NCBI GenBank assembly: GCA_973895155.1 | Contig: OZ316891.1 | Coordinates: 11,037,875-11,101,874, forward strand | Source: Marsupella aquatica | Lineage: Eukaryota; Plantae; Marchantiophyta | Direction of reading: 5' to 3' | Length of the DNA: 64,000 nt | In this document: positions 1-43,709 of the stretch, in pieces | How positions within the stretch are numbered: the first letter of the stretch is position 1 | Layout of the letters: each line of letters begins with the position of its first letter | The notes under the pieces: model-generated | What the model was told of the DNA's origin: nothing | What the model saw: the letters and a program-made list of their open reading frames with translations, nothing else | Database searches by the model: none | Made by a program: the position numbers and the translations under genes

Positions 1-2414
1 TGCTTGGAGGATTCAGATGCACCCTCTTGAGCCCGGGTGTTCACAATTTCAGCCCTCAACTCTTCTTTTGAAGGGCTTTGCCCCAATTGGGCTTTCTGCA
101 CATGCATGGCAAACACAAGTTATCGATCAATATTCAGGGAACGTACACTAAAAAACAAAGTTTACATGTATGGGTTTACACTAAAAAATAGTACATAGTG
201 TAGCATAAATTACATAGCTAGGCCATTCATTCTTACCAAACGTTTAGCTGTCGGTGCAGTGCCGGTCCTTCCTGTCAGATTAGGGTTCTGAACACTCAAC
301 CTGGCCTCGGTCATCTGTGAACTCTTCTTTTTTGAAGCATCTGTTACAAAATAAGCTACTAACCTTGCCCACACTTTATCATCACAACTGGCTGGTGGAG
401 GCATATCTGGCTTCTCCCCACCTTCCTTCCAAGCCTTATGCATTCTCCACCTCTCTTGCTTGATAATTTTACCTGCTGTACTCTCTAGGCAACCTATGTC
501 CACGCCATCATCACTGCCCACATAATTCCATTTGGCAGCAATATTTTCACATACAGTCTTCCAATCTTTTGGATGCTGTTTTTTAAAATTAATAGCACTC
601 ACATCTAACCAACGCAATACTTCAGCTTTCAAATCAGCATGCCATCGGTTCTTGCGAGGACACTCAGCATCCACCCATTGTCTCTCATTCAACTTTATGT
701 TCCCTTTCTTTGTCACCTCCCCTCGTGCACTGCTCTCGGTAGTACTGGGCGTTGTATTGGCCACCCCTTCATTCACCCTACCTGGGGTTCTGAAGCCACC
801 TGGGAAAATACAATGCCATTCATGCTTGAGAACTACATATAGCAGAATGGATGACGGCAACATTCAATGCTTCACTTCAAGAAAAATTCTTCAAACATAC
901 ATACCTGTAGCTCTGCCTGTAGATGCCTGTGCAGGGACTGCACTCTGAAATTGTTGCGACCCTGGACCACCTGTCCAGCCTAGTACATGGGCCGGATGAT
1001 GTCACTTTCTAGGTATGTGTGTGCAAACATATGTACTGAAAACTAAGTACAAACTGTAGGAAAACAACTGAACATTCACCGACATACCTGTCCCCCTTCC
1101 GTGCTGCATCTGCATAGGGGCATTAGTGAATACTTGAGTCGATGGTTCGACTGTCCAACCTGCACACATACATTTTCTATCATTATACATGTGCAGAGTC
1201 CCCCCCCCCCACGTGAATGGACTCCACATATAATGAGTTCTTCCATTGCTGACAAGATCAGACATTACCTGCTCCTCTTCCAGCGTTTGTAGGTACTGAA
1301 TTTTGATATCCCTGCCAATTACCTTCACCACCTTCCCAACCTTGTTCATTCCACGACCCACCACCATCCTCCCAACCTGGTTCAACCCATGTCTGTCCTT
1401 GTGGACATTGGAACTGATCATTACTAGCATTTGCCCAATCAGGTTGGGCAGAATCTGCATGCAATGGCAGGTGGACAGAATTTCATGTTGTCTGAATCCA
1501 ATACATCCCAAACAATGTCAAAAATTGATATGCAGTCTGAAATTCAGGAGTGCCATGCCTTCACAAAGAACTGGCATATAGATATATACTCACATCCCCA
1601 TGGTTGAGGTGGACGTCCATACCCACGAGATTGTGGGTTTGGACCTGCTCTGCCTCTACCACGGGCATAACCTAGAGCTTGCCCCCTGCCATAGTATTGG
1701 GCACCAGCCTGGGATCTACCACTACTACCACCTCGCCAACCTTGATCAGAGGTCAGCCCCCCTGCTGGTATGGTGCATGCACAGGCTTCGAAGGCAAAAC
1801 AGAACTGGCAGGACGCTGCATCACATCACCAACTACAATGTCAAGAACTAAGCAAGGTACATATGTGTAGTACTGAACATATGAAACCTCTAAACAAGAG
1901 TTTTTAACTCAAAACCTTGTTGGGAAAACTACTTACATGTTTCTTTTGGGGCTGCTCTGCAATGTATTCATCTTCATAACCCCCATCCTCATCCATTTCC
2001 TCTGGAAAATACTCATCATCTGCATCTTCTTGTCTAGTGTCTGCACCCACTTGTGCAGCATCAATGTCATCTCCACATTCTGCCATTGTAGGCACGACCT
2101 TCTTGCTCAACCTGTCACTCCGACGCACAGGCCCAGAGATAGTGCTGGTCACCCTTCTTGCGTACTCCTTTTGTTTCTTTGAAAATGCTGTGGCTCTGCG
2201 ACATTCCAATATGAGAATACAGTCACAATTTCAGTGCCACATTGAACTATTCATGTCACACAAACTCAGCGAAGGGGTGTAGTTGAGAATCGTTCCCTTA
2301 CAATTCAGCCACATCCTTTTCCAGATCTAGTTCTGCGATTTTGGCTTTCACGTATGCTCGTTGTTCCATAGCTTTCCTTTCATACTCACACATCTCTGTG
2401 TCACTCTGTTCCAT
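1..2414 (-). CDS. CACTA TnpA-like (Ptta/En/Spm, Transposase_24-like) multi-exon gene, continues off the left edge
   Basis: ORF 210..863 contains WARLVAYFVTDASKKKSSQMTEARLSVQNPNLTGRTG, typical of the Ptta/En/Spm domain. Upstream exon-like ORFs (2298-2414 MEQSDTEMCEYERKAMEQR, 1904-2209 with acidic tract, 1258-1464) have GT/AG-like boundaries. It lies directly downstream of TnpD. Exon structure is approximate. Confidence 0.65.
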
Positions 2415-2570
2415 CCTACTGGACCACAAAAACATGTCATCTATGGTCACCCCGTATAACACAATGCAACCACAATCACCAGGCATCCATCCATGCATCT
2501 GTGTTGCTTCAGAATTACTTTATTACACATCCTTCCCCTCACTAATGTCCATGCAAACAATTCACATTAC

Positions 2571-5500
2571 TCATGGCACAGGCACACTGTTGGCATCTGC
2601 ATCTCTGAATTCGCCTCCTTCAGCAAATGCATCTACCCTTGTCACAGGAATGAAGTCCCCGCTATCATGAACTACAAGCACTTGGTCTGAACGCCGACGA
2701 TCAAAGGCACTATGAGAGTGTAAATGAAACTCAAGGTTTGATCCTTCCATCTGACGTTGCCTGGCCTGTTTATGACACACTACACGCCAACCTGGGGAGT
2801 CTTCCACATCCAGGAAGAAAGCTTGCTCCACCTGACTAGGAAACACAAATGGCTCAGACCATTCGGGCAATTTCCCTCTGAAATTGGCCAGCAAGAAACC
2901 GTCGTTGTCTCTCTTCATGGTAGCCCTGTTACCAAGCCAATCCTACCGCACCCATGAACCTTTCATAAGAATCACAGGACTGGACACTGCCCCATAGTCC
3001 AGAGCCCATATGTCAACTAATTCTCCCACATATCCCATCTCCATCCAGGCCCTGTCGTGATTGTGGCTCTGTTGCTCAAATACAGTGATGAGCCCGCAGT
3101 CATTCGTCACCCTGTAGGCACTGTCACCATCCTTCACTCGGAAGTGATTCCCATATGCTCTCATCCGTTTGTAAGTCTTCACTTTCAGGCTAGGGGCATT
3201 AGACAGTAGGTAAACATCTGCATCCATGTCTGGGTGGGTCTCGTGATGCTCTCTAATTGCCACTCTGATCCACTCCATGAAACCTGGAAAAGTTGTTCCT
3301 GCAGTGGGATGGGCCGCCTTCAATGACTCATACTCCCTGAACGAACAACCACACAGCATTAGCTTGGGTAAACATGAATAGGCTGAAGGAGAAAACCACA
3401 CGAACACAACATGTAAGCTCATGAACTGGATTATAGCACATGTATGCACTCACTGTATCCAGGGTTCCATCACCACAGTGTTGTGCAATACAAAGTCATG
3501 TGCCAAGTCTCTCATAGATATGGTCAGGTTCTTTGTGGTTGCAGCCCCTTCCAGTACTTCACCTATCACCCCTTCCTCCTCATCAGAATTCCACACCCTA
3601 GTCTTCACATGCTCATATTGTGCTATGTATTCGGTCAGAAATCCCAGAGTCTCATCCTTGATGTAACCTTTAGCCATGCTTGCTTCAGGTTTGTAATATG
3701 TTCTCACGTGACCTTTGAGTAGCTTCATGTACCGTTCCAAAGGGTACAACCAACGAGCACTCACAGGCCCAAATTGGTGTAGCTCTTCCACAACATGGAC
3801 AAGTAGGTGGGTCATGACATCAAAAAATGCGGGAGGAAAATAAATCTCCAGGTCACACAGCACCTGAGCGACATCTTCTGTCAGTTGTGGGAAGTGTGTT
3901 TCATCCCAAACCTTCACACAAATACGACGAAACACATCACTGAGTCGCATGATCACAGTACGAACAGGCTTCTGCAACAGGCCCCTCAGGCATAAAGGCA
4001 ACACCTGTTGCATCAACATATGGTAGTCATGGCTTTTCATACTACCAAGCTTTCTAGTCATGATATGCTTCTTGAAAGCACTGCCATAGTTTGAAGGAAC
4101 CTTCAAAGAACTCAACCTCTGCACAAATAGTTCCCACTCTGTGTCTGTCAGAACATAGGGCGCTTGGTACTTCAAGAGCACATCAGCTCTGTGGGCATGT
4201 GGCCTCAACCAAAGATGGGGTTTCATTCCCCTCTGTTCAAGATCCAATCTCACTGAACCAGTGTCTTTCTCTCCACACAAGAATCTGAGTAGACTCTCAC
4301 AAATATTCTTTTCAATGTGCATAACATCAATGTTATGTTTGCTTGGCTCAAACTCCTGCATCGTTGCAATGCAAAAGCGTCAGGAAATGCCTCAAGTTTA
4401 GTCTCTCTCTTCGAAATGAATGCACATGCTCTGAACCAAAACATGTATCCCAATTAGCATCAACTCCAAGAGGCTTACCCTCCAGTACTTGAGCTCCAAG
4501 TCCAATATGCTCAGTCTTTTTACACCATATCGCTTTATTGGATCACTCACTCCATCTTCCCTGCCCCCTCGTTTGATATAGTCATCCCTCAGTGCTCCCC
4601 ACTGCCTGATCTCCTCTTTGGTCACTTGTGCCGGGGGTCCACATTGCTCAATCTCATTGCCAAAGTGTGCAATCAGTGCTTGTCTTTCTCTGTAAGGGTG
4701 ATCTGCCTTCAGAAAACGATGATGGCCCATGTATATCACTTTCTGCAGGGCTCTGGAGTACTCACTGGTGACATTGCGCCCACAGATAGTACAAGCACAA
4801 TATCCTTTTGTTGTTTGGCCTGATATCATCCCATGGCTGGGTAGTCAGCTATAGTCAGAATGACAATGGCTCTAAGGATGAATGGGTTTAACCTCCCAAG
4901 CCTCTGTAGGACATCATATGTGAGAACTCCTTCCTCCCAAAGCTTTCTCAATTCCTCCACTAGGGGAGCCAGAAACACATCTATGTTGGCAGATACAGCA
5001 CTGTCTGGCCCTGGTATCAGTAGGACCATCAGAACAAAAAATCGCTTTGTAGTCATCCAAGGAGGAAGGTTATAATTCAAAATAGTTATAGGCCAGCACG
5101 AAAATTTGTTGTTCTTGTCTCCAAATGGGTTTACCCCATCCAATGACAGCCCAAGTCTGACATTCCTCGGCTCAGCAGCAAATTCAGGATACATCTCATC
5201 TATGAGTTTCCATTGCCTTGAATCTGCAGCATGTCGTTGTAGCCCATCATCACTTTTCTTGTCAGTTGCCCAAGTCATCATCTCCGAGATGGCACGGCTT
5301 CTGAACATCCGCTGAAGTCTGGGAATGAGTGGAAAATGACGAAGTACCTTGGCGGGAACCATAGACTTTCCTGAGTTCCGATACCTGTGCTTCCCACACT
5401 TAGGGCATGTCAACGATTCTTTATACTCCTTTCTGAAAAGAACATGCCCATCAGGACAGGCATGGATCGAATCATAGTTCAATCCAAGATTAGATATGCA

Positions 5501-6469
5501 TCTTTTTGCCTCGTACATGTTCTTGGGCAAAATATTACCATTTGGTAGCACAGTTGTTCGCAAGAATGCCAACAACTCAGAAACCAAAACGTTGGGGACA
5601 TTGTGGTTGCCGCAAATGTTCAGGAACATGATGACAAATCCCAGTTTAGAACATTTGCTACCGGGGTACAAAGACTTCCTGCCTTCCTGTATTTGCAGGG
5701 GAGAGCCAAACATCCCATCATGCCCAGGGGTTTCCTGCCCTATCTCAAACTCATCAAGAGGCTCTTCGACAGGGGGCACACTTGCAGCTGCAGCCGTATC
5801 CTCTTCATTGTCCAGCCCATCATGAAATGCATCCAAGTCTTGGAAGATGTCTCTCACCATCTCTTCCACATGAATTCCTTCGTCAAGTGGTGCTGCCTGA
5901 GCACCATCCCGTTGGAGAGCTGACAACCCACAGAGACCAGCTACAACATTTTCAAATGCACCAGGCAGAACCTCACTTGCCCGTCTTGCAGCATTGGCAG
6001 CATCAAATTCTAACCTCCACTCCTCATCGGAAGAATCTTCCTCTGCAGGATCATTCCAAACTCGATGTCGTGGATCTCTTCCATGAACCGCGATATGCCG
6101 CCAAACCTCATTCAGACCCCTGGTACGGGATCCTTGGCAGATTGCACAAGGACATCTCATCCTACTGGCTCCTGAAAGTCTGGTTCGTAACCTTTCACGC
6201 TGCCAAAGCTTATTATCATGGCGTGATATCCTGTGGGATGATGCAAAGGCAGTGCCTGTGCCCTGGGCTGGGTCTGGGGAGGGTGGTGACCAGGGTGCAT
6301 TGTAACAGGCTGGGAGCTCTGCAGTCATGGACAGCAGTGAACAAGGATGCCTAATGGTGGTATTTGTGTTCCATATATCCCTGACTGTATCTGCCAAAAG
6401 AGTTAACATAACGTGTACTAAATTCTCACAAACCCTAAACCACCCCAAAAGAAAAAAACAGGTTCGCAA
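2571..6469 (-). pseudogene. CACTA TnpD/Tnp2 transposase (Transposase_21 + DUF4218 + DUF4216), disrupted
   Basis: Motifs IHACPDGHVLF, CPKCGKHRY, PRNVRLGLSLDGVNPF, YNLPPW, IDVFLAPLVEEL, DYPA, IDVMHIEKNI, MKSHDYH, FFDVMTHLLVH, WLYPLERYM, EPFVFPSQVEQAFF. Introns at ~4356-4479 and ~3338-3452; frameshift at ~4829; in-frame stop at 2943-2945. Confidence 0.95.
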
Positions 6470-6733
6470 GTAGTGTACCTATTGTCAAGTGAATGACACA
6501 AAATTCCTAAATGTTGGAGGGTGTCACCACCTCCTCCGCTGTCCTCAAATGTACCGCCTCTGCATGTACGTTTACAGTGACACCCCCAGGCAACAGGAAA
6601 TAACAATCCGCCAACAGTAAAATAAGCCCAACTGCCACCAACCATAACAAGGTACATTAGTTCAAAGATCACATTTATTTCAATGATCTGATTTATACAA
6701 AAAAACTTGTGTCCAAACTGATGCTACTACTCC

Positions 6734-7606
6734 TCACTCTGATTCAGAATCGCTAATGACCCATTCCTCACTTGTTGTCTCATAGTCCTCTCTGTAAGGA
6801 TCCTGACCCTTCCGTGGCCAGGCCTCAAAAAGATCATAGTCCATTGGGTTTTGACGCTTCCCAGCTGCTACTGATTCCACAAGCCAAGCATATGAAACCA
6901 CAAACACATTATGGGACATGACATAAAAGCGAATGTCTCCCTTCCCAAACTTGCGGCAGGCTTTGGGATATGACTTAGTAATGACATGAGTGGTGTCCTC
7001 TGTTATATTCTCCTCCACTGTCCCACCTAGGTCAAGCACTGTGGACTTGTACACTTTGCACTTAACCTCTCCAATTCCCGCCTCCACAAATACCATGCTC
7101 AGCCCTTTCAGAATGGGGGTTGGTTGCTTCGTCTCCTCAGCCAACATACTCTTTAGCCTTGTAGAGCTCTGTCCTTTGTTGAGTACAGGTCCATATTGGA
7201 GATCAGCAAGCCGTGCCTTTGCTTCCCAGACTTCTTGTTCAGCCCAAGCTGATGCAGTAGCTTCTTCATCCTCCCACAACTCATATTGCTCAGTATCCTG
7301 TACAATCTTATGTGCTATGGAATCTATGATCCAAGAGGCCTCAACTACTTTTAGGCCTTGCTTAGTAATTGCAGAATTCATGTAGGACCATGACCACTTC
7401 TTTATCACTGATAGCCATGTCCCTGCAACAACATGTGTAGTCTCTGGAGTGATGTCCTAAACTACAGTGCCATGGAGCTCAGAGAATCGTTTCTGTACAG
7501 TTGGCCAATGCACTTTGGTCAACCCATGCTGGCCATGGACCAAAATCGCTCTGACCCCTGTAAACACTGCTGGGTGGTCACACTTTCTACGTTTACCAGG
7601 CTCCAT
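6734..7606 (-). pseudogene. Tandem BRCT-domain protein (~290 codons) with one in-frame stop
   Basis: ATG at 7606 reads MEPGKRRKCDHPAVFTGVRAIL..LHGTVV*(TAG 7457-7459)DITPETTHVV..KVVEASWIIDSI..YEL. A second repeat reads ILKGLSMVF..LGGTVEENITEDTTHVI..VVSYAWLVESVAAGKRQNPMDYDL. Both carry the BRCT GG/THxx/W-x-x-x-S signature. Confidence 0.85.
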
Positions 7607-8198
7607 GTACACACACCCTACGTGATGACAGTGAATTTTGGAAGAATGGGTTCACCTCACAATACAAGGACAACAAAATTCCTACTTTTTGAGTTGATCT
7701 GGCCCACTGGTGCTCAGGTCCGATTTTGATAGGTACAAGGGATATGTGAACAATACGTACTAGGCACCTGCACGGATGCAGGACATTGTTTGAATATATA
7801 CTACAAAATCCATATCCGTGGTGAAATGAAGTGCAACCAACTTGTCATGACACATACATATTTTGTTGTAAAGGAGGATACATTCAATGACAAACTTATA
7901 GGGCAATTTGATTAATTGCATGCCTGATAATTTATACGCTTACAACTTAGAAGTCCTGTTTTAATTTAGCAGTCTGATGAAAGTGTTTATGAAAATGACC
8001 ACTCAGCCTAAATACTTCCAAGAAGGCTTGTAAGGATAAGTTTGTATAGGCATGTACCCAGCCACTGACGCCAGAGCACAAGATAAGTGCTGCCTATATA
8101 AACTCGCCTACCCAACTCCTTTTCAAAATTGGAATCTCTGCAATCTCAAAAAATAGTACATCCACATCAGGTGCACTGTGCATGTACAATGTTCAGCT

Positions 8199-8879
8199 TC
8201 ACAGCCAAGATATGTGATCTCTCACAGGAGTGCGCGAGGTAGGATCAATGGCATGGCGATGACAATAAAATATCCATCGATCAACACCATGTGCAGAGTG
8301 ATCATAGATTTCTCTATCACAAGCATAACCCTCTGCTTGATGATCTTTCAGGCAATGATAGTGCCACATAGTGGGACACCTAGCACAGTGGACTATGTCA
8401 GTCCAGTAGTCATCATCATGCTCACCACATGCCTTGCACCTATGAAGTGGGCAAGCTGTGGCATGAGCAGGCAAACACTCAAAACAGAAAAATCTCACAC
8501 AAAAACGGTCTGGACATTTCCTAACATTTGCTGCAGCATCAACAGAGCCCTCATAGGACCCCAACTTCCCACACTGTGCACACTTAGCCTGCTTCTCCAA
8601 ACAATCAGTGCACATCCAGTCTCCCTGGTGTGTTGACGGGAGGCCCACCCCTGGACAGTTGTTTTCTACAGCAAGGTCAGACTCCGGGCTGAGGTGGAAA
8701 TGCCTCATGCAAGGGCCCTCACAAATGACCAGGCCCCCACCATCGTCACAAATGGCACAACAATGAGCTGCCTTCTGGAAAATCTGACTTGCAGAGAAGT
8801 TAGTAGCATCTGCCCCAAGTACACCTGTGTTTCTCACCTCTGTCACACGCTTTTTGGCTTGAATTTTAGGCCGTGCCAT
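8199..8879 (-). CDS. Stand-alone EDM2/NSD-type composite PHD-finger protein (226 aa)
   Basis: Intact ATG-to-stop, intronless ORF: CAICDDGGGLVICEGPCMRHFH..CTDC..CAQCGKLGS..CPLHRCKAC..CARCPTMWHYHCL..IFYCHRHAID..TPVRDHI. The order and the C-terminal TPVRDH motif match the PHD cluster of plant EDM2 as I recall it. Confidence 0.85.
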   Translation of the reverse strand: MARPKIQAKKRVTEVRNTGVLGADATNFSASQIFQKAAHCCAICDDGGGLVICEGPCMRHFHLSPESDLAVENNCPGVGLPSTHQGDWMCTDCLEKQAKCAQCGKLGSYEGSVDAAANVRKCPDRFCVRFFCFECLPAHATACPLHRCKACGEHDDDYWTDIVHCARCPTMWHYHCLKDHQAEGYACDREIYDHSAHGVDRWIFYCHRHAIDPTSRTPVRDHISWL

Positions 8880-8890
8880 GCCTGCGCATG

Positions 8891-9034
8891 AGATAGACTC
8901 TACAATTTAGCAGACTACACAGAAAGTAAAATATATTTAGCATTTAAGGTACAAAGGCATTTAGATAGACTCTACAATTTAGCAGACTGCACAGAAAGTA
9001 AAATATATTTAGCATTTAAGGTACAAAGGCATTT
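8891..9034. repeat. 72-bp direct tandem duplication (2 copies)
   Basis: agatagactctacaatttagcagact(a/g)cacagaaagtaaaatatatttagcatttaaggtacaaaggcattt occurs twice, just upstream of the PHD ORF start. Confidence 0.9.
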
Positions 9035-9649
9035 GCTACTGCAATGAATTGGAATGGCCACACAAGGATGCAGAGCACACATACTTTTGGTATGTTGAGC
9101 CCACACACAAAACTGATCCCCTAATACAATTTCTCCACCAACACCTCAATTTTAATTGTGGCTATGATTCACCAAAGGAGATCTGCAACAACATTTCATG
9201 CATTTGAATCACATACAATAGTCGTGACATGTAAAACAGGCATTCTTCGAAGAGGATTGGTATGAAGCAGTGTCATAAGGGTTGAAATTTATACATCCTA
9301 AATAGGTTATGATAGTGGCTGAGACAAATAAGTGAGGCATAAATCATTTTGCATATTATCACATGGCCCATTAATTCATTCAACGTTGCAATGTTCACCA
9401 GGTTAAAGCAGTCATGAAAGCAGTCTTTCAATAGAGACTTTTATGCGAGTTTGCTAGCCTCTTAAATTAGGATATTTTGCTTAGTGCAGGCATAATAGGA
9501 TATAAGTTATGTACTGTTGACCCTAAACCCTGGACCCAAAATTGCTCATACATCAAAATTTTAAGTAAATATCCTCTGTGTTGAAGTTAGAGTGTTAAGC
9601 TATAGGTCAATGGTATCTGGTCTGTGCATGCGGTGTGACAAGTGGTCCT

Positions 9650-10099
9650 CTAGAGCATGTGATCCAAACATGTGTAGACACCAAAGTCACCGGTGGTGGG
9701 GTCTGGGAGGGCAGGACAAGTGACATCACCAGGCACACTACAGGATGGCGAGTGGTTCCAGATGATACATTGTGCTCTATGCAAAAATCGGCATCCAAGA
9801 GAACGGTCATCCAATTCTGGGCCAGAAGCCCTATAGGCAGGACAGTCATATTGGCAACTGTGTACACACCCTTGGCACCTAATTTGTGGCGGGTCATGTA
9901 CAAGAGACACAAATACCAAGGATGTCGGGAAGGGTACTGAAGCAGGTAGAGGCCGGCTGTAGTTGTTCCTGGAAACAACAAGGTACTCAAAGTACCATGC
10001 AGACTGGGCTGGAAGGATCCCAAGTCTGACATACTCAAGGCGCAACATCTCTGCCTTGCGTGCAAGTCGCACATGTTCAGCGTTGCGGGTCCTCACCAT
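9650..10099 (-). CDS. Small Cys/His-rich protein, possible extended-PHD-like zinc finger (149 aa)
   Basis: ATG-initiated ORF with a basic N-terminus and CQGC..C..C..CRFLHRAQC..YTCLDH spacing; co-oriented with the PHD and BRCT ORFs. Confidence 0.45.
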   Translation of the reverse strand: MVRTRNAEHVRLARKAEMLRLEYVRLGILPAQSAWYFEYLVVSRNNYSRPLPASVPFPTSLVFVSLVHDPPQIRCQGCVHSCQYDCPAYRASGPELDDRSLGCRFLHRAQCIIWNHSPSCSVPGDVTCPALPDPTTGDFGVYTCLDHML

Positions 10100-11107
10100 A
10101 AGTGTTGCTTTCGTTGTGATGTCCTCTGTTCACGTCCTTTGATGAGCAAGGTGAGCAGGAGGTCGACTTGCCTCGCCAACAGCAACCACCTAAACTAATC
10201 AGTTCCCACTCATTGTCTTGGTTCCAACTACAGGTCATAGTATACACATAGCATGAAACGTGCATAGTACATATTTGATTCTGAGTTTATGAGTTTCCTA
10301 AGACAAAGAGCTTGGTGATAAACCCATATTCTCGACGGACATGTATATCAATCATATTAAACTCCTGTTTTTTCATCCAGAAAGACCGAAAGTCTCACCT
10401 TGCAGGTTGCAGTAGAGAGAAAATTCACTGGTTGTCGTGTTGTGCAAGTGAACCTCCACTGATGCCCCGGTGTAGCCCCTCAGATGCAGGTGACACTTAC
10501 CAACTCCCAAGTTGCCTGGTCTAACAAAAAATGCTTATATCTTCAGAACTTTATAGAGCAAGTACATGATCACATACTTCTGGATCTATTCATATTTGGA
10601 ACTCTTGCCAACTACAACTCCCATTATGCACAAGCTCACATCAACAGAGAAAGATACAGAATGCATACTTACTATGGCTCTAAGCACCTTCACTACCTTG
10701 TTGAACCCAGTCCTGAAGTCTTTTCAGCGTGTTTGTTGTGCTGTCTCCTTTGGCACCCAACACCTTAGTCCTTGATGTAACAGAATGCAATTTTACAAGT
10801 TAGATGCTTTGGAACCTTCTATGGTCTTAGCTGAATTGATGTCATCGTAAGTGGTGAAAGACAAGGAAGACGAAAGCTGGTTGAAGAGCTGTGGACAACA
10901 CACTAGCATGAAGTGCTTCAACCAATCCACTGCCAAACGGAACTCTTACATAGTCACATTCTTTTAGTAAACAAAAACTCAGTCAAACTTCAGAATCAAA
11001 GTACAGACTCTGAAGGACCAAAGGAGGATGTTGTGAGTTTCTCTGTTGTTTAATGTGTTACCCTTCTAGTTTCGAAGTTAGCAAATGCTGAATAATGTGT
11101 CTACCAG

Positions 11108-11450
11108 ATCTTCGAAAAGAAGCCCACCACAATTAAGAACTTCGGTATCTGGGTCCACGTATCAGAGTCGTACAGGTTATCACAACATGTACAAGGAATA
11201 TTGTGATACCACAAGAAACAGAGCTGCAGAGCAGATGTATGATGAGATGGCTTCTTGTCATAGAGTTCAGTTCCCTTGCATCCAGATCATGAAGACTACG
11301 ACAGTCCCTATCTCTCTGTGCAAGCGAGAAAGTACCAAGCAGTTCCATGATTCAAAGATCAAGTTCCCCTTGACGTACTGCAAGATTCAACCTCCATTGC
11401 GAAAGCTAAAGACGACTTACAAGGCCACCAAGTCCAACACAATTGTTTGA
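11108..11450 (+). pseudogene. RPL18A: 60S ribosomal protein L18a (eL20) C-terminal exon fragment
   Basis: [15 protein letters not shown](frameshift)[52 protein letters not shown]. Preceded by T-rich intron-like sequence ending CAG (11105-11107). The N-terminal exons are absent. Confidence 0.9.
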
Positions 11451-12636
11451 GTAGTGCGGGTGCAGGTTCCCAATTTTGAGACAATTTGGCTCATTTTATG
11501 TCCCGAGGGAATCCTGGAGTTTATGTATTGAGTTTCTAGGTGAAGATGCTTAATATAAGGAAATTCAATTATCACTTCGTTCCCAACTTCTATTAATTGA
11601 AAATACACAAGCTAGAAGCAAGAAGACAAGCCACAATCTAGCATCTTAGCCAAACACAATCGTCCCGACAAAGCAAAACTCAGCTGGACAGAAGTCACTC
11701 GGATCCACAAAAAATTGAAGATTCACCTCCAAGCCGGAGGCTGATCACTTCAGTACAGCAGCTTCTAGACGGAACAAACTCTGGTCAGCCCCACAGAAAC
11801 ACAAATGTTAAGGCTCCAAGTCAGAGCTCACAAACAGAAACTCAGATAAATAACATTCAAAATCTGTCCAGGTTTGTGCAAAGTGTACATATTCATTCTT
11901 CTGGAATGAACACGCAATGCATACATCACCTAGACACAGTCATTATAAATCATTGGGCGATTGGGGACCACTAAGCAGGTGTGTTCCTATTTCGAGGCTA
12001 CAGGAAAGGATAGAGTGACACCAAACTCAAGAGTACACCAAAAGAAAAACAGCAAGAACCAAAGTCAATCATGTGTGGATAAACTGCACATGGGAAGTTC
12101 CCCTGAAGAAGCATCAGTTGCTAACATTGTCACCCGAACCACACCTAGTTTATGACCTCAATGTCTTCAGCCTCAATATCCAATCCTCAGCCCCTGGTGC
12201 TTCCGTGTTTGTTCTGAAAATTTCTGTGATGAAATAATTATTCAATACATTCAATAGGAGTTCAGACAATCTGAAGAGGACTTTGGACTTGAATGGGGGA
12301 CAGCGTGGCCATATAGTTATCCTTGTGGCCTTCAACTACGTGTCTCACGCTGAATTTCACTTTCCAGTTTTGAGAGTTGTGAAGGTCTAGTTTTAGTAAC
12401 TTCCTCCTGACTCGACTTGGGAGCATTCTCTATATTTGCTAGCTTGTAGTTAGCTTTGACTCCTTTCAGCTTAGTTGACGACCCTCTTGAGATATTAACA
12501 ATTAGAACAAACACAAGTTGTCAAGACAGATTCCACCGGAGCAAAAAGTCCAAAACCAGGTGAATGAAAACCTAAGGAGAGTCCATAAGAACGAAAGTAG
12601 GAAGGCAGGCGCACGGGCCACCGAGAAAAGTAAAGG

Positions 12637-12797
12637 ATGCATGTCATTAGTGGGGAGGGATCTTAGCAAAAGCAGGGGAAAGCAAGGGAACTTGCGGCTA
12701 AAATCAGCTGAAAGATGCATGTGATTAGTGGGAGGGATCTTAGCAAAAACAGGGGAAAGCAAGGGAACTTGCGGCTAAAATCAGCTGAAAGATGCAC
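12637..12797. repeat. ~79-bp tandem duplication (2 copies)
   Basis: atgcatgt(c/g)attagtggg..gatcttagcaaaa..aggggaaagcaagggaacttgcggctaaaatcagctgaaag is repeated. Confidence 0.9.
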
Positions 12798-14293
12798 AGT
12801 TCCTAGAAATGTAGTGAACCTTAAGGTCGTCTGTTCACCCCCACACCCCACCGCCGGGCACAAGGCATGTTCTGATACAGGGAGGAGCAAAACAATCATG
12901 TCAAGCAAGAAGTGTGGAGAGACCAATCTGTAAGCAAAAATAGGGGAGAACATACATACATCAGCAGCAACAGGAAACAAGAAAGATGAGTTCGGAAAGC
13001 ATCTTAGGGTCGGGGACATCACTGCAACACCGGGACTTAGGATATGACTTGTTCTTAATCTGTTGATAGCATCCGGTAGGCCGACAACCCATGGCAAAAG
13101 GGCAGAGCAGCAATAACAGTTTGAATCTGACGGATGAAGCTCCAGGCAAATGAGCTCCAGGCGATTGGGTGCATGATTGAGTAGGCGATTGTAACAGCAG
13201 GCACCAGGTAATTTAAAGGAAGCAACATTCGGCAATGGACCTAGGCAGCTCACAAATTTTGCTTAGCAGCGATGTCACCTAGACCCTAAACACGCAATGC
13301 ATACATCACCTAGACAACTATACTTGCAGTCACGAGGTGAGTCCGCGTCGATAGGGGATTGCAGCCTTACCTGTGCCGATGTAGCACCAAGCCGCCCTAA
13401 CTGAAGCTGCGTAGCAATCCGCAGCAATCGCTCAATGCAAAACAAGTCCCCGGTTGGCCTTGCAGCCCGATCATCCACCTTCAACCCTGCCACCAAGCAA
13501 TGAGCTCTCCGCTGTTGCTCACCCTAAACCTTCAACACTCCCGCAAAGTTGTGTCTGCCCGCAAGATTGGGTGCGTGATTGATTCGGCAATTGTAACAGC
13601 AGGCAGCCGCAATCGGTCGCAGGTCATGGATACACAAGCTCCAATGTGCTCCCTTTAGCTTAAACAATACCAGTTGTCGCTCACCGCCAACACTTTCAGC
13701 AACAACACATATTTGTTGTAGTCCGCACCTTAAACCTTAGCCATGGGGTGGTCAATCAAGTTCCGCAATGCCTAAAACACCGACCACCTGACTTACATGA
13801 AATGTGCACACAGCTAAGCTCACCTGCAGCTCACGCCAACCACATTGGGACAACTGAAGTGAATACTGCCGTAGCTGAACTTGACTCCTCGCGACTCTTT
13901 CGCGCCTCCGTAGACTGCCTTACTCACAGTGCCCAACGCAAAAAAAGTCCCGGTCAATGTTGCAGCCACGATGCTCCACTCCTGTAGTTTGCACTTGCTC
14001 AGCTCACTCTGCCACAGAAGTAGACTTCTGTCGCACCTCCCTGCAGGTTGACGCTCAACGTTCACTACCCCAACTCACTCAAATTTGAACACTCGCAACT
14101 CCAAATTGGCAGCTTCCGCTCTCAACTCCCTAAACTTACACTTGGTAGCTGCAGCCAAAAGCTTGCCATTTGATGAATTGTGATGCCTAGACAGGAATCA
14201 CTCGGCCAGTTAAGTGGGTAAAGCAGGAAGGCACCCTAGGAACACCTTAGTATAGGGACAAAACAAGGAAAATATAAACCATTAGGGGCAACC

Positions 14294-17200
14294 ATGGAAC
14301 CCGGGCTGAGGCCGGAGGTAAGGACGCTGAGGGTGAAAACTCAATTAGGGTTAGGGCGCGTTAAGCGTCGGCGGCTAGGAAGGATCAACGGGAAGAAGGA
14401 CCGGCAGAGGAGAGGGGTAAGGAGCGCTTGCAGGAGATGGTGGCTCATTTGCGAACACAAACTAGGCAGACGACTACGGGAGGCCAACTACTGTCAGCTG
14501 CTTAGGCAAGCACTCGGGGAGAGAGTAGATACCGACGTTCGACCTAAGGAGGGTATGAGCAACGTCAATCAAGCGGCACATTTCTGGGGATGCCTGTTCG
14601 AACGGGCAACTGAGTACATCAAGACTTACAAGGACGAGGAATCAGAAAGGGCAGCTCGAGAACGGCAGGAGCTCGCTCGATTGTGGGAGCTGCAGAAGAC
14701 GGCTTTCTTAGGAGGCGAACTCATCAAGGACGAGTTCCTGTGGACGCCTACTTCCAATCAACTTGACGATCTTCTGTTTTGCAAAGACAGCGTCGTCGGC
14801 ATCCGAGAGGCCATCAAGAACTGCAACGACATACACTGGGAATTAAAGGGTAGCACGGAAAGGTGGACCCAGGCAACGGTGCTAGGAGAAACCTCCATGG
14901 CAGCAGAGATGAAGAGGAAGGGAGCCGTCAACGATGAAGCCACCCCGGCAAAAAGAACGAGGTCGGCGGCACCAAAGAAGCCAGCCGAGCAGCAGAGCAG
15001 GAGGCAGGGAGAAGCCGAAGAGGAGGAGGTCGATCCCATCAAGGCCATTCCAACCAGGGATGACACCTGGAAGGGCTGGGCGGCAACCCTACCGGTGGAG
15101 GTGCAACTACATTTTGCGCGGGAGGAGGATGCATGCTTCACGGCCATGCAGACCAAGAAGTACCAAGGCTTCATGGCCGGATCCGGCTTAGAGGCCTTTG
15201 TAAGATTACCATGGCTGAAGCCAGAGGTACCGGAGTCAGACCTATTAGAATTCGTGGGGTCATGGGAACCCGAGACCAATTGCACGAGGATATATGGGAA
15301 GGATTTCTATCTTACTCCCAAGGTAATTGCCGAAGTGTTTGGCTTGCCGATAGGCAATAAGACCAAAGTTGATACCAGGAAGACCTTGCCTGACAAGGAG
15401 TTCCGGTCGTTCCCCGGGCCATCAACGAAGAATGGCTTCTTCCGGAACACCTGCACCAACCCGCACATAGGAGAGATGATCGACTTCTTGCGGGTGACCA
15501 TGCATTGTAACTTGCCGAGGGCAGAGATCGGCAAGGCACAGGTCTATCTGGCAGAAAGGCCAGACCCAAGCCGGGACTACAACGGGTACCTCCTCAACCG
15601 ATTGAAGAAGATCTTAAAGGAGGAGCAGCAGGTAATCGGCATGGGGAGCGTGTCGCGGCTTGGCTATCACATGCCGCTGTTGTGCCGGTATGCCAGAGGT
15701 CAGACTTTTGCCCCGGTACTTCCCCTACAGGTAAGGGCACCCGAGGAAGCTCCAACGCCGAGGCCGTTGGCTGAGAAGCCTCAACCACCTATTAGCCCTA
15801 CGATCGAGCAGGTGTTTAGGCCCAGGAAGGAGGACTTGCCGATGCAGCAACCAGGCATGCAGAGTCTGTTGAAACTACTGGAGAAAGAAAAGAAATCGGC
15901 ATCGGCAACAATGCAGGACACTACTACAGAGGTAGGCCTACACCGGCTCACAAGAGAAAACCCCTTTGCTGGAGACAAGGAGAGAATCAGGCCTGAATCC
16001 AAGCCAGGTGTTCGAATGTATGTGGGAATCTCAAGCTCCGAATCTGAGGCAGAATTGCCTGAAGCTCCTACCGACGAAGAGGAGAGGGAGAAGCCGGACG
16101 GCCAAGAAGTAGAGGAGGCAGTGGAGGACTGCAGCCATGATAATTCCGGCTATGGGTCGGACCATCACGTTCCAGGAGTAAGGACCTGTGGCCGGTTTGT
16201 CCCCACACTTCCAAGGGTAGTGCGAGGGGACCCCAACCAGCAGAGTAGCCTTGAGTCTCCCCCACCAGATGTTGCTCCCCCGAGCTTCGACGGCATAAAA
16301 CAGACGGAGCAGGAATTTCAGGAGCGAATCAAGCAGGAAGAGGAGGCAGCCCTGGCTAGGGAAAAGGATTTACCAGGAGGAGATTGGCCGGAGGACATCA
16401 GGCGGCTAGCCAAAAAAGGAAGCAAACCTCTAGCCACGATTGAAGAGATCCGCAAGACGGCTTGGGAGCAGAGGCCGCGATGGGCGATGCCGATCACTTC
16501 TACTTACTCCACCTACGCTAAGAATAGAGCCATGGAGTATGGTGAGATGTGTGGGGAACTTGCGCTCGGCATCTTTGGAGAGGAGTTGGAGGTAGGACCC
16601 TTTTCCATAGGGAGCAGTTGGAGAAGCACCAATTAGAAGAAGCGGTGGCTTTAGAGAGAAGCAAGAAGGACGAGGTCATTCGGCGGCTTAGGAGGATGGA
16701 AGCCGAGATTGAAGATCTAAGGGCGGCCAAGAAAGCCCAAGATGAACTGCGGATTAAACGACATGAGCTGAACATCATGCAGGGGCAGTTGGACACCGCG
16801 CAGGCTGATAATCAGAATATCAAGGATAAATTGACTCAGATGCAGGGAGAGTTGGCCGACACGATCAAAGAGAGGGAGAAGTGGAAGCAAGAGCTGAAGA
16901 ATGCAGAGGAGGCCCACATAACAGCCAACAGCTGGGCCATGGCGGAGACCCAAAGAAAGGAATGGGCGTTGAAGGGGGAGCTCGAGAAAATCCGCGGAGC
17001 CCTTGAGCAGAAGGAGGCCGAGTTAGGGAAATCCTATCAAGGGATTATGGCGCTGCAGCAGGAGCTTGCGTCCCTGACGGCCAGCTTCAAGGCCGACCTA
17101 AGGGAGAAGGACGAGATGCTCGAACAGACTTACGCCAAGATGAACCAGATGGAGTTTGTCATCATTGCAGAGCTCGACAAGGAGCTAAGAGCAACCCAGG

Positions 17201-17535
17201 AGGAGAGGACTACCTTGAAACAAGAACGGGAGGAAGCCCAGAAGGAACTAGAGGAGGCACGCAAGGACCTGGACGAGACCCAGGAGGAGTTGGAGGAAAT
17301 CACGAGGAAGATGGAGAACCTCCAGCGGCGGGCCGACAACCAAACGGAGCGGCTGAAGAAACAAGCCGCAGTATTTAAGTGCTTGTCTTCATCAGGCCCA
17401 ACTCCAATTGGGGCAACCAAGTTACCAGGAGTGGTACTGGCCGAAGAAAAAGCCGCGCCAACTACACCAGTGCCAGAAGTAAGTGGGAAGGGGAAGGGAC
17501 CAGCTGCCGAACCAGAAAAGAAGAAAAAGCGGAAA
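14294..17535 (+). pseudogene. Retrotransposon accessory-type ORF (plant transposon protein/Athila-ORF1-like domain plus long coiled coil), frameshifted at ~16600
   Basis: LLEFVGSW..TRIYGKDFYLTPKVIAEVFGLP resembles the domain in extra ORFs of plant Gypsy elements. It is followed by an acidic/Pro-rich linker, ~250 aa of heptad coiled coil and KKKKRK. The sequence is CpG-rich relative to its flanks, with no gag/pol or LTR nearby. Confidence 0.55.
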
Positions 17536-18920
17536 CCTTCAGAGAGTGGGTTGAGGAAACGATGGTGCAAGAGATGAATTGGCAGGTTCTGCAAGTTAAG
17601 TACGTAGGAAAGAATTTCTACTTGGTAGTATTTGCACAGCGTGATCATCGGGACGCAGCGTTGGAGTATGCACCGTGGTTCATGGAACGCAGGTTTGTCT
17701 ATACCTTTGCGTGGGATCCCTCGTTTGACATCAAGAATGAATCATACACTAAATTCCCGGTCTGGATTGAGATTCCATACAGAGCATTAGTACTTGAAGG
17801 ATGCAGGAGGAAGATTGTGGAATCCTTTGGACAGTTGCTGTATTACATTCAGGGGGATGAGTTCAGCTCCTACCCGCATGATAGGGCCTGCATTCTATGG
17901 GACACTGAAAGGGAGATCCCGGCTAGCGCTCGGATTAGAATTGGAGATGACATCATAATATGGCAGCCTGTTACATTCAGGAACATCCCGTATCATTGCT
18001 TTAAATGCAACCTTAAAGGTCATCTAGCTAGAGACTGTGTCATGGGAAGCACGGAAGTAGAGAATGAAGCTCCCGGATTATCTAAGAAGACTTTGGACCC
18101 GGCGGCTGCCCCTTATCGAGCGGCTGAAGTGGCAACAGATCCTCCTTCAGCGGCAGCTGAGGCACGTATTGATGGTCTTCAGTATAAGCCTGGTATGGTC
18201 CCAGTTGATACTGGAGTGGAAGCAGACATATTGCAGGTGGAAAATATTCTGTTGCAGGCTAGTGGTACACAAGGAGGAAATATTGGGGCTGCACCTGTGA
18301 CTGTCGAAGATCAGAATGGTAGCAGGCCGTTTGGGGTTTTCAGGCTGGGGGTCGGACCCTCCTTTCCTGAGGACCCTGGGGATGCTGGTGTGCAGCTAGA
18401 CACTTTGGGGCTTGACGAGAGGGGGACAAGGGCCAATGGTGAAGGAGTTGACGGGGGAAGGAGCCTGGGGGAATCTAGGCCGGACACTTTGCTGCAGTCA
18501 GGGACTGTTGGTGCTGATGACTACTCATTTCATGGGGATACTGACATGGAGCTCTCAGAGTACGAAGAATACATATCACGAAGTCAAACTAAACTTAGAG
18601 CAAGGAAACAAGAGCTGAGAACCCCCCCAAATCGCAAATTGGAAAAAGATAAGATGGAAGGGAAAAAACAGCGCTCCTTAAGCTTCTCACATGAGCCGTT
18701 GTTGGTTGCAGAGGGAAGTGGACCAGGAGGTGTTGCTGCTGCCACTGAGGAGGCTGGGGAGATAGCGGAACATACGGGTGGGTCTGCCAAGCGCTTGACT
18801 CCACTGGTTGCTTCTTCTCCTGTGGGGACTCGGATCCTAGGTAACCCGGAACTGGGGGTCACTCCCCCGGCTGAAAGAATTGGCAGGGTGGCCTCACCTG
18901 GGGCTCCTCCTTGTATCTAG
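17535..18920 (+). CDS. LINE ORF1 (DUF4283 RRM-like region and zinc knuckle), N-terminally truncated
   Basis: QVKYVGKNFYLVVF..APWFMERRFVYTFAWDPSF..PVWIEIP..CFKCNLKGHLARDC. Confidence 0.85.
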   Translation, partial: TFREWVEETMVQEMNWQVLQVKYVGKNFYLVVFAQRDHRDAALEYAPWFMERRFVYTFAWDPSFDIKNESYTKFPVWIEIPYRALVLEGCRRKIVESFGQLLYYIQGDEFSSYPHDRACILWDTEREIPASARIRIGDDIIIWQPVTFRNIPYHCFKCNLKGHLARDCVMGSTEVENEAPGLSKKTLDPAAAPYRAAEVATDPPSAAAEARIDGLQYKPGMVPVDTGVEADILQVENILLQASGTQGGNIGAAPVTVEDQNGSRPFGVFRLGVGPSFPEDPGDAGVQLDTLGLDERGTRANGEGVDGGRSLGESRPDTLLQSGTVGADDYSFHGDTDMELSEYEEYISRSQTKLRARKQELRTPPNRKLEKDKMEGKKQRSLSFSHEPLLVAEGSGPGGVAAATEEAGEIAEHTGGSAKRLTPLVASSPVGTRILGNPELGVTPPAERIGRVASPGAPPCI

Positions 18921-18969
18921 GTGTGGGGGATCGCTAGATCCTCGGGCTTACCTCTGTTGGATAGCCTGA

Positions 18970-21900
18970 ATGGATAGCCCATGGAAAATCGCCTCTTGGA
19001 ATGTGTGCGGGCTGTGTGAGCCCAATAGGAAACATGTGATCAAAAACTGGGCCGTGGCATTAAGGCCCCCTCTGGATATATTTGCATTACAAGAAGTAAA
19101 GTCAGAACAGTTCAGATTGGACATTGCCCTACGTACTATTCTACCACTGTATCAACACTTCTCTGCGGCCCCGGATGGGGGACGGGGGGGGGGGTCAGCC
19201 CTGCTCATACAACCCCTGCTTAAAGTGATTAGATCTGGTGCACTTGAGCTTGGGAGAGCGGTATGGGTGATTATAGAGCATACTAGTGGTATGATTGGAG
19301 TGGTAAGTGTGTATGCCCCCAACTCTGCAAGACAACGGGCTCTGTTATGGCATGAACTCAAGGTAGAACTGCCACAAGCGAACTGGATTTTGTGCGGTGA
19401 TTTCAACATGACTGAATCTAGGATGGATTCATCGAGCGGATCATCCTTACTGAAGGGACAGGAGGCAGAATTTTGGCGTTTTTTACAAGTGCGATTGGAT
19501 CTTATTGATGTCTATAACCTGGGCTGCACAGTGATAGGATCCAGATACACGTGGAGACGTGTCCGGCATGCAAACCTCACACAGTCTAGACTGGACAGGT
19601 TTTACCTTAGTGGTCTTGGAGGTTGGATTGCTGGCATAGTGGAGCTAACTCATGATGGGGGCTCGTCACTGTCGGACCATGATCCCATTGTGGCTGTTTT
19701 GCGCTTTCAGATTGAGGAGAGGGATTCGGAAAGAGGTAAGTCCCACTTTTTTAAAGCTAACCCTTACGTACTCCGGGATCCGAAGAATATTGAGCAATTG
19801 GAGGTTGCTTGGCGGGCGGGGGGGGTGGGCGAGGTGAACCCTCACTTGCGTTTCTCTCGTGCATGTCAGAGACTACGAAAAAAATATACGGAGTTGCAAT
19901 CCGCACCGAGACAGTCTGAGGAGGAGTTGAACTTTCTGAGAGATAAAGTGAGAATACTTAAGACTACTATTGTAGATGAATGCTCACTGGATGAACTGAC
20001 AGAGTTTCTGCAATGGGAGGACATGCTTCACGTAGCTGAAGTTGAGACGGCGCACCAGGCCAGACGGTTAGCCAGAACTCGGTGGCTGGGAGAAGGGGAG
20101 GAATCAACTAAATTTTACTTTGCCACAGTCAAGGCTAAAAGAGAGAGAGAAGCTATGAGGATGCTAGTAAAGGAGGATGGATCGGTACTTAAAGATTTCA
20201 AGGACATCATTGGGGAAGTAGAGCAGCAATGTGAGGCGCTTTACTCTCCTGGGCAACCATCTGAGGAGGAGCTACTAGAAAGCAGGTGCAATAGGGATAA
20301 AAGCTATTGCGGAGTACTAAATCAGCATTCACGGCGGCAAAGATACACAGGATGGAGGCACTTCCTACGATCTCCGAGGTGAAAGAGGTGTTGTGGCTTC
20401 TCCCGGAGGACAAGGCCCCTGGGACGGATGGGCTCACGGCTGAGGTTTACAGAGCCTGTTGGGAGTTCATGAAGGATGATATGGTGGCAATGATACAGGA
20501 TTTCTGGCTCACAGGCGAGTTGGCTGCTGAGATCAAGGATGGCCTGATAAAGCTGATACCAAAAAAACCTGATAAAAGATACTTGAAGGACTGGCGCCCT
20601 CTGACGATGCTTAACACTAGCTACAAAATCCTGGCCAAAGTGATCGCTCTACGAATTAAGCACCTGCTATGTAACCTGATCAGTCCTCAGCAGACCGGGT
20701 TTATCCCGGGTAGACATATCTTAGAGAATATTTTGCTTGCTTGGCTTACAAGTGACTGGGTTCAGAATTGCAGGAAGGGAGCATTATTCCTAAAACTTGA
20801 CTTTGAGAAAGCATTCGACAGGGTTAACCACGAGTATCTCTGGGAGTCTATGTTGCTGCTGGGATTTAGTGGTAGGATTGTGAACATAGTTAAAGCCTTG
20901 TTCTCTAATGCCAGCTCTCGAGTACTAGTCAATGGCTTTCTTAGCAAATATTTTTTGATGTGCCGGGGGGTGAGGCAGGGATGTCCTCTCTCCCCTCTTC
21001 TATTTGTGATTTCTACCCAACCTCTCATGGATTTCTTGGATGCTGAGCTTGTGGCTGGTCGACTTGCTGGTATCCAGGTTTCAGATGTGCTTACAGTGTG
21101 CTACAGATTGTTTGCTGATGATGTGGGGATGTTCATCCCTGCAACAGAGGAAGCGTTTAGGGATGCTACTACGGCTCTGTCATGTTATGAAAGTGCATCT
21201 GGTGCTAGGCTGAACTTACAAAAATCTGTTATCATCCCACTTGCTTTGGACCTAATTCCAGACTGGCTCAAGGCTACAGGCTGCAAGATTAGTGAGCAAG
21301 GTGAAGTGCAGAAGTATCTGGGTGCTCCATTTGGTATTGGACTCTCAGTGGGTAATTTACATCGCTTCTGCCTGGATAAGGTTGCTGCACGCTTGTCCTC
21401 TTGGTCAAATAAATTGCTGTCCTTCACAGGTCGGACATTGCTGGTGAAACATGTGCTCATGGCAATACCGATATATCACGTAATGTATATGAAGGCCTCG
21501 GAAGGGCTGGCAAAGAAACTGATTGCGCTGTGCAGGGATTTTCTATGGGGTTATAATTCTGCGGGCGGGAAGAAGATTCCGCTGGTGGCATGGGACAAGA
21601 TGGCTCGCCCTAAGGTGGATGGCGGACTAGGGTTTCGTGACTTTAGAAGTCACTCTGATGCGTTACTTACTCAGTGGTTTATGAAGGCCTTGGACTATCC
21701 CAACACGGAATGGGCTGGCATGCTTGCTGCTAATCTGAGTCTTATTGGATGGCTGAATTTCAGGGTGATTAGGCGAAATCACTACACATTTGCAGATAAG
21801 CTACTTTTATGTACTCCAAGATCTTGCTGCGGGCTGACATACACTTGGGGAATCTGGAAGGCCTGGGAGGCTTTGAGAGCAAATCTTTCCTTTGTCCCAG

Positions 21901-22895: not shown

Positions 22896-23391
22896 TGATG
22901 CTTAGAGTAGGTTAGGCTCTTTGATTGGTGCTGTGGCTTTGGTGGGCTTGGGTTGGGCTCAACTGTGCGGCTCTGTTTTTGCTTTTGGGGCTTGCCCTTG
23001 TGTTATGGCTTCAGGCCTTTAGGGTGCTCATGGATCTGGCTCTCGCTGTCGTTGACTGGCTGGCTGGGGTTGGGCTCTTTACCGGGGCCGTATATGATGT
23101 CTGGGCGAGCCCTGTTTTAGGGGTGCCCTGCTGGCCTCCTGTGGACGTTGTCCTTTTGTGCGTGCTTGTGCTGTTTGCTTCCCCCGTCGTGGGGTTTTCA
23201 CGGGTTATTTCTATAAAAGTTTGAAAAAATTTCCAAGGAAGATTGTGTAATCCTGGCCACACATGAGCCTTGGAAGTCCTTGGACATGAAGTCATTTCCC
23301 CTAGTCCTTGGGGCCTCCTTTGGTACCCCTCTAGCTTGCTTTTGACCAAAAGGGTGAGGAGGGAGGAAAGCCTGATACGCCAATCTGTGTC

Positions 23392-28478: not shown

Positions 28479-28545
28479 TTAGGGGGTCCAGACCCTAAAA
28501 CGTCGCACGTGATGTAGAGCCCTACATAGAGTGACCCCCCCCGAG
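28479..28545. other. Candidate transposon terminus: two hairpins followed by a C8 run
   Basis: ttaggg..ccctaa (28479-28498) and atgtag-agcc-ctacat (28512-28527), then agagtgacccccccc. Copia homology starts abruptly at 28546. Confidence 0.55.
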
Positions 28546-33647: not shown

Positions 33648-33841
33648 ATATAGAGTTAACCAAGAAAATGTCTCTATATGAGTACTCCATCCGATGGCTT
33701 ATCGGCTACGGCTTAGTTCTAGTTAACCCTTGCATTAGGGGAAGGGTCTTTTGGCCCTACTGTCTTGAACTTCCCGCGGAGGAACTTGTAAGGAAAAGGC
33801 AATGTTATGAACCCTCCCAAGACGTGAGTCAAGGGGGAGTT

Positions 33842-43628: not shown

Positions 43629-43709
43629 AGAAACGCGAATGCAGTGCAGTGGAGAAGCGGACTACACCATGGTGTTTATGTGGACACGGAGCTCCGAGGT
43701 GCGACAGAG

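Follow-up and report, generated by a model that had tools for sequence, protein, structure and literature searches.

A free-standing EDM2-type PHD gene in a decayed CACTA transposon, probably a selected accessory gene of the element

The window, by which we mean the whole stretch of 64 kb of DNA that was analysed, carries a stand-alone gene of the EDM2 PHD type (8199..8879, minus strand) that encodes 226 aa in a single open frame and that is probably a selected accessory gene of the transposon in which it lies. EDM2 is a host factor that lets the polymerase read through heterochromatic transposons. A more specific role for the product of the transposon gene, as a chromatin-binding accessory protein acting as an anti-silencing shield or adaptor, is a serious possibility that we put forward tentatively.

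Read from 8879 to 8199 on the minus strand, the frame runs from ATG to TGA over 226 codons with no internal stop, and the plus frame is interrupted by a stop. When the 1.7-kb region was resampled 500 times with a Markov model, 0 of the copies gave an ATG-initiated ORF of at least 226 aa, and the longest ORF per copy had a mean of 86 and a maximum of 183 aa. The protein begins with a basic, disordered N-terminus (residues 1-26), which is followed by three Cys/His fingers and the C-terminal end DHISWL. Pfam places PHD-1st_NSD at 39-93, PHD_NSD at 96-140 and PHDvar_NSD at 148-180, in NSD-like order, with E values of 7e-5 to 4e-3 that are each below the curated cut-off of the model, and it finds nothing besides these three in the 226 residues. 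An earlier, sequence-only reading had described an uninterrupted ORF of this length among broken neighbours, made up of the PHD cluster only, and both statements hold, as the adjacent BRCT gene has a TAG at codon 50, the transposase gene TnpD has a frameshift near 4834 as well as stops, and Pfam returns no other domain. That reading was right to place the end of the ORF near TPVRDHI but not directly after it: the frame reads TPVRDHISWL before the stop, three residues further. Just upstream of the start codon lies a tandem duplication of 72 bp whose units are 99% identical (8891..9034, no strand assigned).

The genomic context of the ORF, which the earlier reading had proposed as a check, is a decayed CACTA (En/Spm) element, an assignment that we make from its coding content. 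The TnpD-type transposase that marks CACTA/En-Spm elements is present and broken in this copy (2571..6478, minus strand), where fragments match Transpos_assoc, Transposase_21, DUF4218 (E 5e-28) and DUF4216, with two Transposase_21 matches (E 7e-49 and 7e-14) flanking the frameshift. A TnpA-like ORF fragment at the window edge (210..863, minus) matches Transposase_24 (Ptta/En/Spm) with an E value of 1.5e-4, below the curated cut-off. On the evidence of continuous contig cover the element extends approximately over 1..13400 on the minus strand, with its 3' end beyond the window; lists of CACTA/CACTG motifs and repeat scans in the window gave no convincing terminus, and the 5' terminal repeat was not singled out. 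The gene order on this one strand is an upstream region, the PHD ORF, and then the twin-BRCT, TnpD and TnpA-like ORFs. The claim that a stand-alone PHD gene lies inside a transposon is borne out.

Two points were not part of the earlier reading: the element carries several cargo genes, the PHD ORF among them, and this ORF belongs to a wider stand-alone family. The twin-BRCT gene (6734..7606, minus, 290 codons with the TAG at codon 50; ORF and Pfam evidence) has intact relatives of 294-295 aa in 2 of 1,203 candidates, at 60% and 55% identity, and its closest solved structures are the repair proteins Rtt107, BRCA1 and ligase IV, matched weakly (E 0.001-0.01). It has no clear host donor. A likeness of the second BRCT to DNA polymerase lambda was not borne out by the search of solved structures; the structure prediction for the twin-BRCT protein reached a pLDDT of 34 and was consequently left out of the fold comparison. 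A possible third cargo ORF (9650..10099, minus) encodes 149 aa from MVRTR with a Cys/His-rich C-terminal half ending in CLDH; it has no match in Pfam, the PDB or the PHD profile, and diverged contigs align across 9618-10259 and then run off. The 13 metagenome loci found were distant EDM2/NSD-like matches (26-48% over best segments) and gave no match to the BRCT cargo, and 0 of 319 pattern matches in viral contigs were confirmed.

The element stretch is found in part in 10 of 12 listed public sequencing runs, with no RNA run listed among those that contain it. On 1-14,300 there are 5,310 contigs in run X3 and 11,290 in run X2, with cover throughout and a depth that falls stepwise near 10,500 and 13,360. 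Some contig joints skip the interior of the element (158 to 12982, 1136 to 6079, and 1889 to 11681, the last with only 25 letters on its short side), as deletion derivatives would give. Thousands of variant contigs apparently reflect an element present in many copies, with the reservation that summed contig depth is not copy number. In run X7, from another organism, summed depth on 5,200-9,400 ranges from 640 to 5,300 across the five bins of the PHD ORF and amounts to about 2,000 over the TnpD core and 120-390 over the first BRCT, against no more than 11 in the spacers on either side of the PHD ORF. Matches to TnpD are also deep in runs X8 and X9, where the depth over the PHD ORF is at most 21, and run X10 is shallow throughout, so that TnpD and PHD occur deep together in one of these four runs. 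Among 32 contigs listed of about 17,700, none bridges the PHD stop codon.

Elsewhere in the window a LINE, Copia-like ORFs and an OPT fragment make up what is typical land-plant DNA. Among the full-length relatives looked up, those that score highest are proteins of liverworts and lycophytes, a faint indication of a seed-free plant as host. Contig cover climbs again from about 13,830, and the plus strand at 14240-22895 holds ORFs of 798 and 343 aa (the second coiled-coil-like, both with no informative Pfam match) followed by a LINE with DUF4283, endonuclease, reverse transcriptase and zf-RVT. The next stretch, 23335-27608 (+), has ORFs of 146, 215, 415, 141, 164 and 295 aa with zinc-finger-like Cys/His motifs that belong to no Pfam family, and resembles a decayed, unclassified DNA transposon in which CpG is strongly depleted (o/e 0.21 over 24180-27608). 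Two Copia-like copies at 28500-34100 and 49300-55300 (+) are 96-97% alike, lie 21 kb apart and both contain stops or frameshifts; between them, at 42270-43630, a unit of about 109 bp is repeated 10-12 times in a degenerate tandem array. A single host gene is apparent, an OPT oligopeptide transporter represented at 62270-62872 (+) by what looks like its first exon.

The PHD protein belongs to a family of its own. A word-seeded search found five relatives among 124 candidates (217-245 aa, 38-81% identical to the PHD protein), and a profile search over 1.84 billion representatives gave 563 matches at E <=0.001, of which the best 150 were used. From these and from cluster look-ups, 22 proteins including the query were assigned to the stand-alone family, 16 of them by the tree and six, all fragments, by motif only. 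Twelve members extend as far as the end of the module, and every one of them stops 0-8 residues past it; seven of the 22 leave the profile into unrelated residues, as expected of decayed copies, and three end early. The remaining profile matches are mostly long, with DNMT1-RFD plus PHD_NSD in 5 of 25 scanned, and we term them EDM2-type by architecture, using the module description in the available part of PMC7529245; no looked-up record carries the name EDM2 from its source. The ESM Atlas contributed nothing beyond streptophyte clusters of the EDM2/NSD-like kind (0.92) and generic BRCT clusters (<0.9).

It is very unlikely, in our judgement, that the element encodes a longer protein whose final exon is the PHD ORF, for example by splicing to the 149-aa ORF at 10099-9650. 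Such an arrangement would explain the AG that stands two bases 5' of the ATG and the Gly just before the Met in two relatives that were called with upstream residues (P0004 and P0012), and alternative splicing is described for En/Spm elements in the accessible text of PMC13547354. A non-coding leader exon, however, accounts for the AG equally well, and the Met with its basic start of the MAR-K type recurs in members down to 38% identity. A longer relative was found neither among 354 candidates, which is a weak test, nor among the best 150 profile matches.

The phylogeny with EDM2 and NSD PHD clusters that the earlier reading had called for gives one long-stemmed clade inside the EDM2-type proteins. 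FastTree was run on 151 of 160 proteins (nine short or repeated ones omitted) and IQ-TREE on 44 and 30 chosen rows; in the latter, the family forms a single clade (11 of 11 rows, support 100/100) with a stem of 1.5-1.72 changes per site. This clade falls within the EDM2-type set and apart from the outgroups, whose rows were taken as algal-type or NSD-like with names not looked up. Together with the alignment of the cluster to TPxRDH, this agrees with a derivation from the EDM2 PHD module. The sister of the family in 1000 bootstrap trees is all land-plant rows in 363 and a short liverwort paralogue in 255. Another clade, formed by P0034, P0042, P0053, P0056 and P0133, consists of EDM2-like proteins of only 265-344 aa that contain little besides the PHD cluster and keep the host-type fingers.

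Two more ordinary origins, which the earlier reading had named as outcomes that would speak against it, were not found. In the 64-kb window, 8768-8205 is the only stretch to which a full-length Marchantia relative aligns, and it covers the module alone; the PHD ORF is thus no exon of a host EDM2 gene at this place. No protein outside the family is more than 35% identical (of 137 such proteins, 134 were aligned over at least 150 residues), and this, with the long stem, argues for an old derivative and not a recent, near-identical retrocopy, the compared proteins being those retrieved, a set that excludes the window's own host EDM2.

Averaged over 14 family members, identity reaches 0.89 in the 22 Cys columns and 0.43 in the remaining 204, in agreement with the earlier statement that the ligands are kept and the linkers diverged. 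Ligands that persist along paths exceeding 1.5 changes per site, together with a fixed end point, are marks of selection, which the earlier reading had suspected. The variants listed within the PHD ORF do not add to this: all eight are non-synonymous, several of them from single shallow, near-identical contigs, and we take them as decay of single copies or as errors that give no support for selection.

These observations bear on a passenger origin, in which the ORF would be a neutral captured fragment or a member of a small host PHD gene family that happened to be carried along in the way of a ribosomal gene. A decayed, intronless fragment of ribosomal protein L18a (RPL18a; 11082..11450, plus strand, Ribosomal_L18A, E 1e-16) does occur inside the covered stretch under deep contig cover and was probably captured by the CACTA element; short EDM2-like proteins exist elsewhere in the tree (P0034, P0042, P0053, P0133), and the linkage of PHD and CACTA is directly seen at one locus only, that of this window. 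The conservation of the ligands over such long paths argues against a passenger, as do the many broken members, the fact that 0 of 15 looked-up members come from annotated NCBI or UniRef proteomes, and the finding that in another organism (run X7) deep cover coincides with the coding stretch and is shared by TnpD. We therefore regard a passenger as improbable and a selected accessory gene as the better description.

Selection has preserved a module that differs from its host counterpart in defined places. In finger 1 of the family, 18 of whose 22 members could be parsed, D/E follows Cys2 in 18/18 and Cys3 in 17/18 and an aromatic residue precedes the last CxxC in 18/18; the same positions in the long host-type proteins (72 parsed of 77) score 72/72, 67/72 and 71/72. 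The six positions before the first Cys contain acidic residues in 0 of 20 family members as opposed to all 69 parsed host-type proteins, and His stands at -2 from the first Cys in 18/20 versus 3/71. In finger 2, Cys replaces His and the spacer is 7 residues long in all 14 parsed members, whereas the host type has His in 67/69 and a spacer of mostly 25-29 residues, which makes the finger of the family about 20 residues shorter. The loss of the acidic stretch and the altered finger 2 suggest that the binding specificity has probably shifted from that of EDM2, and because the module is remodelled in this way, its description as an H3K9me2 reader or an AAE mimic is unproven, as is the recruitment or titration of the ASI1-AIPP1 machinery that the earlier reading had proposed.

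What the remodelled module might bind can be approached from known readers. According to the part of PMC10124903 that is available, acidic residues hold the lysine in readers of unmodified K4 and A1 and R2 sit in a separate pocket; through an alignment with AIRE we infer that this principle extends to the acidic stretch of the family. On such grounds binding of the H3 N-terminus with a changed reading of K4 is plausible. An AlphaFold model of the PHD protein, built from a 14-sequence alignment (mean pLDDT 73, residues 1-26 disordered), finds its fold matches in H3-binding types, namely PZP domains and the NSD PHD5-C5HCH tandem, the latter a weak match (best Z 6.0, rmsd 2.5, 83 residues aligned). 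By sequence, NSD2 (E 3e-13) and NSD3 (E 6e-12) are the closest solved relatives, and the searches of solved structures contained no EDM2 entry among their matches.

The features that have changed could also mean that the protein is a functional zinc scaffold that binds DNA or another protein instead of a histone, for instance as a sink for a partner of EDM2. The lost acidic stretch (0/20), the His at -2, the short all-Cys finger 2 and the long stem would all fit a scaffold of this kind; finger 1, on the other hand, keeps as in the host type those acidic and aromatic residues that are tied to binding of the H3 N-terminus, and we consider a non-histone scaffold quite unlikely. The loss of the acidic stretch nevertheless counts against the proposed H3-binding role, and so does the low share of human PHD constructs that bound H3 in one screen, only 31 of 123 (PMC6979384).

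With these reservations, the following course of events may be proposed for an anti-silencing accessory gene. One old capture would have brought the module from a gene of the EDM2 family, possibly a liverwort-type paralogue ending after the module, into a CACTA element, where purifying selection would then act at the level of the element. The basic N-terminus may serve nuclear import, and finger 1, with the acidic and aromatic residues that it has retained, could bind the H3 N-terminus on the element's own chromatin. Nothing in the protein is catalytic or an effector, which leaves blocking and bridging as its only modes of action. It might thus be a shield or adaptor without catalysis under which copies of the element stay transcribed; the analogy for such an anti-silencing outcome is with VANC and with the effect of EDM2 on COPIA4.

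We favour this outcome because of that effect and because of the probable host origin of VANC and of a TnpA domain. The accessible portions of PMC7472560, PMC10852260 and PMC10241880 describe EDM2 PHD fingers that bind H3K9me2 among other marks and an AAE complex that promotes distal polyadenylation. In the part of PMC3632883 that is available, EDM2 raises COPIA4 transcripts and lowers H3K9me2 at COPIA4, and its effect on the DNA transposon Mu1 is the opposite, with Mu1 repressed rather than freed, which counts against an anti-silencing role. VANC and a TnpA domain probably come from host chromatin regulators (PMC13547354, as far as its available text goes). The claim of H3K9me2 reading also needs care if the host is a bryophyte, since H3K9me2 peaks were not detected in a hornwort and H3K27me3 lies on 40% of transposons in Marchantia, according to the available text of PMC10952607.

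The main rival to anti-silencing is the steering of insertion sites. Here the PHD protein would be a targeting adaptor that reads the chromatin state and tethers the TnpA/TnpD transpososome, with the twin-BRCT protein as a link to DNA-repair factors at the break. The evidence for selection and context fits this equally, the neighbouring cargo is a conserved twin BRCT whose best matches, though weak, are repair proteins, and fusions of PHD or chromo readers to transposon proteins are common and have been proposed to direct insertion (10.1101/2021.11.30.470311, in its available text). The PHD protein is a separate ORF that is not fused to the transposase, however, and an extra protein contact must therefore be assumed; we judge targeting somewhat unlikely. 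As for the anti-silencing proposal, its fullest form is that a CACTA lineage of land plants captured the EDM2 reader module and re-tuned it as a free-standing mimic protecting its own transcripts, the twin-BRCT and Cys-rich ORFs completing a chromatin/repair adaptor cassette for anti-silencing by histone reading. We consider this whole scenario unlikely as stated and offer it as speculation.

How far the gene resembles systems already described depends on the part that is compared. With EDM2, of the ASI1-AIPP1-EDM2 complex, it shares the complete atypical PHD cluster, counted as two and a half to three fingers, which aligns up to TPxRDH; unlike EDM2, the PHD protein has no RFD-like N-terminal domain, no methyltransferase-like (ELP) domain and no proline-rich tail, and the transposon module is free of introns, has lost the acidic stretch, carries a short finger 2 with Cys for His, is at most 35% identical and lies in a transposon. 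If it is a selected histone reader taken from EDM2, the gene would tie the AAE read-through pathway to the conflict between host and transposon. The NSD1-3 cassettes, which include the nearest solved relatives by sequence in NSD2 and NSD3, belong to large SET enzymes.

Closer in layout is the liverwort EDM2-like paralogue (Marchantia MARPO_0005s0286, Riccia R1sor_003797, Calypogeia CAM6087769.1), which ends 3-47 residues past the module and has His or Tyr two residues before the finger-1 His in 6/6; at this position the stand-alone family shows His or Gln, and the long host type mostly Ser (61/71). It differs from the family in that its five named members are 619-768 aa long with a long N-terminal part, and in that the acidic stretch and the long finger 2 are kept; moreover, the sister relationship appears in only the 255 bootstrap trees given above. 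The proteins concerned (P0013, P0016, P0018, P0023 and P0030, with the unnamed P0060) are without the methyltransferase-like half, and they represent a candidate donor lineage.

As for the element, Transposase_21, DUF4218, DUF4216 and, as a match below its curated cut-off, Transposase_24 follow in order on one strand as in other CACTA/En-Spm transposons. The available text of PMC4158355 and PMC13547354 describes such elements with two ORFs, and here at least two more conserved genes stand upstream of TnpD. A literature search, which covered few subscription papers and had repeat databases outside its scope, found no CACTA element with a free-standing EDM2-type PHD gene or a twin-BRCT gene, at least in the accessible parts of its sources; the available text of a 2026 gene-capture review (PMC13317346) does not mention PHD, and that of a 2026 Arabidopsis atlas (PMC13547354) mentions neither PHD nor BRCT. 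Even if targeting were the role, the literature searched gave no description of a CACTA element in which a PHD protein and a twin-BRCT protein are each encoded by a gene of their own.

The capture of host chromatin factors by transposons, as in VANC, and that of PHD readers in the form of fusions are already known. Reader capture of the second kind is recurrent, with 823 gene models of PHD or chromo fusions in the available text of 10.1101/2021.11.30.470311, in whose main text "CACTA" and "EnSpm" do not occur and whose supplementary table of the 823 fusions may bear on this; those readers are fused to transposon domains and the PHD ORF is free-standing. VANC and KIU of the VANDAL elements (Mutator-like) offer the nearer parallel, each being a separate accessory gene in a DNA transposon and probably a captured host chromatin regulator (MAIN; PMC13547354 and PMC13317346, in their available parts). 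Here, too, an accessory gene separate from the transposase is conserved as a family, with its linkage to the element seen at this locus only. VANC differs in belonging to another superfamily, in recognising DNA motifs and in having been shown to hypomethylate, whereas the PHD module is of the histone-reader type and is known from its sequence. In the sources available to us the plant counter-silencing factors VANC and TnpA act via DNA binding, and a free-standing, selected histone reader derived from EDM2, if true, would represent a different route. The family in any case provides a natural set of minimal, re-tuned EDM2 modules, each of about 220 aa in one exon, with which to ask what the atypical cluster binds.
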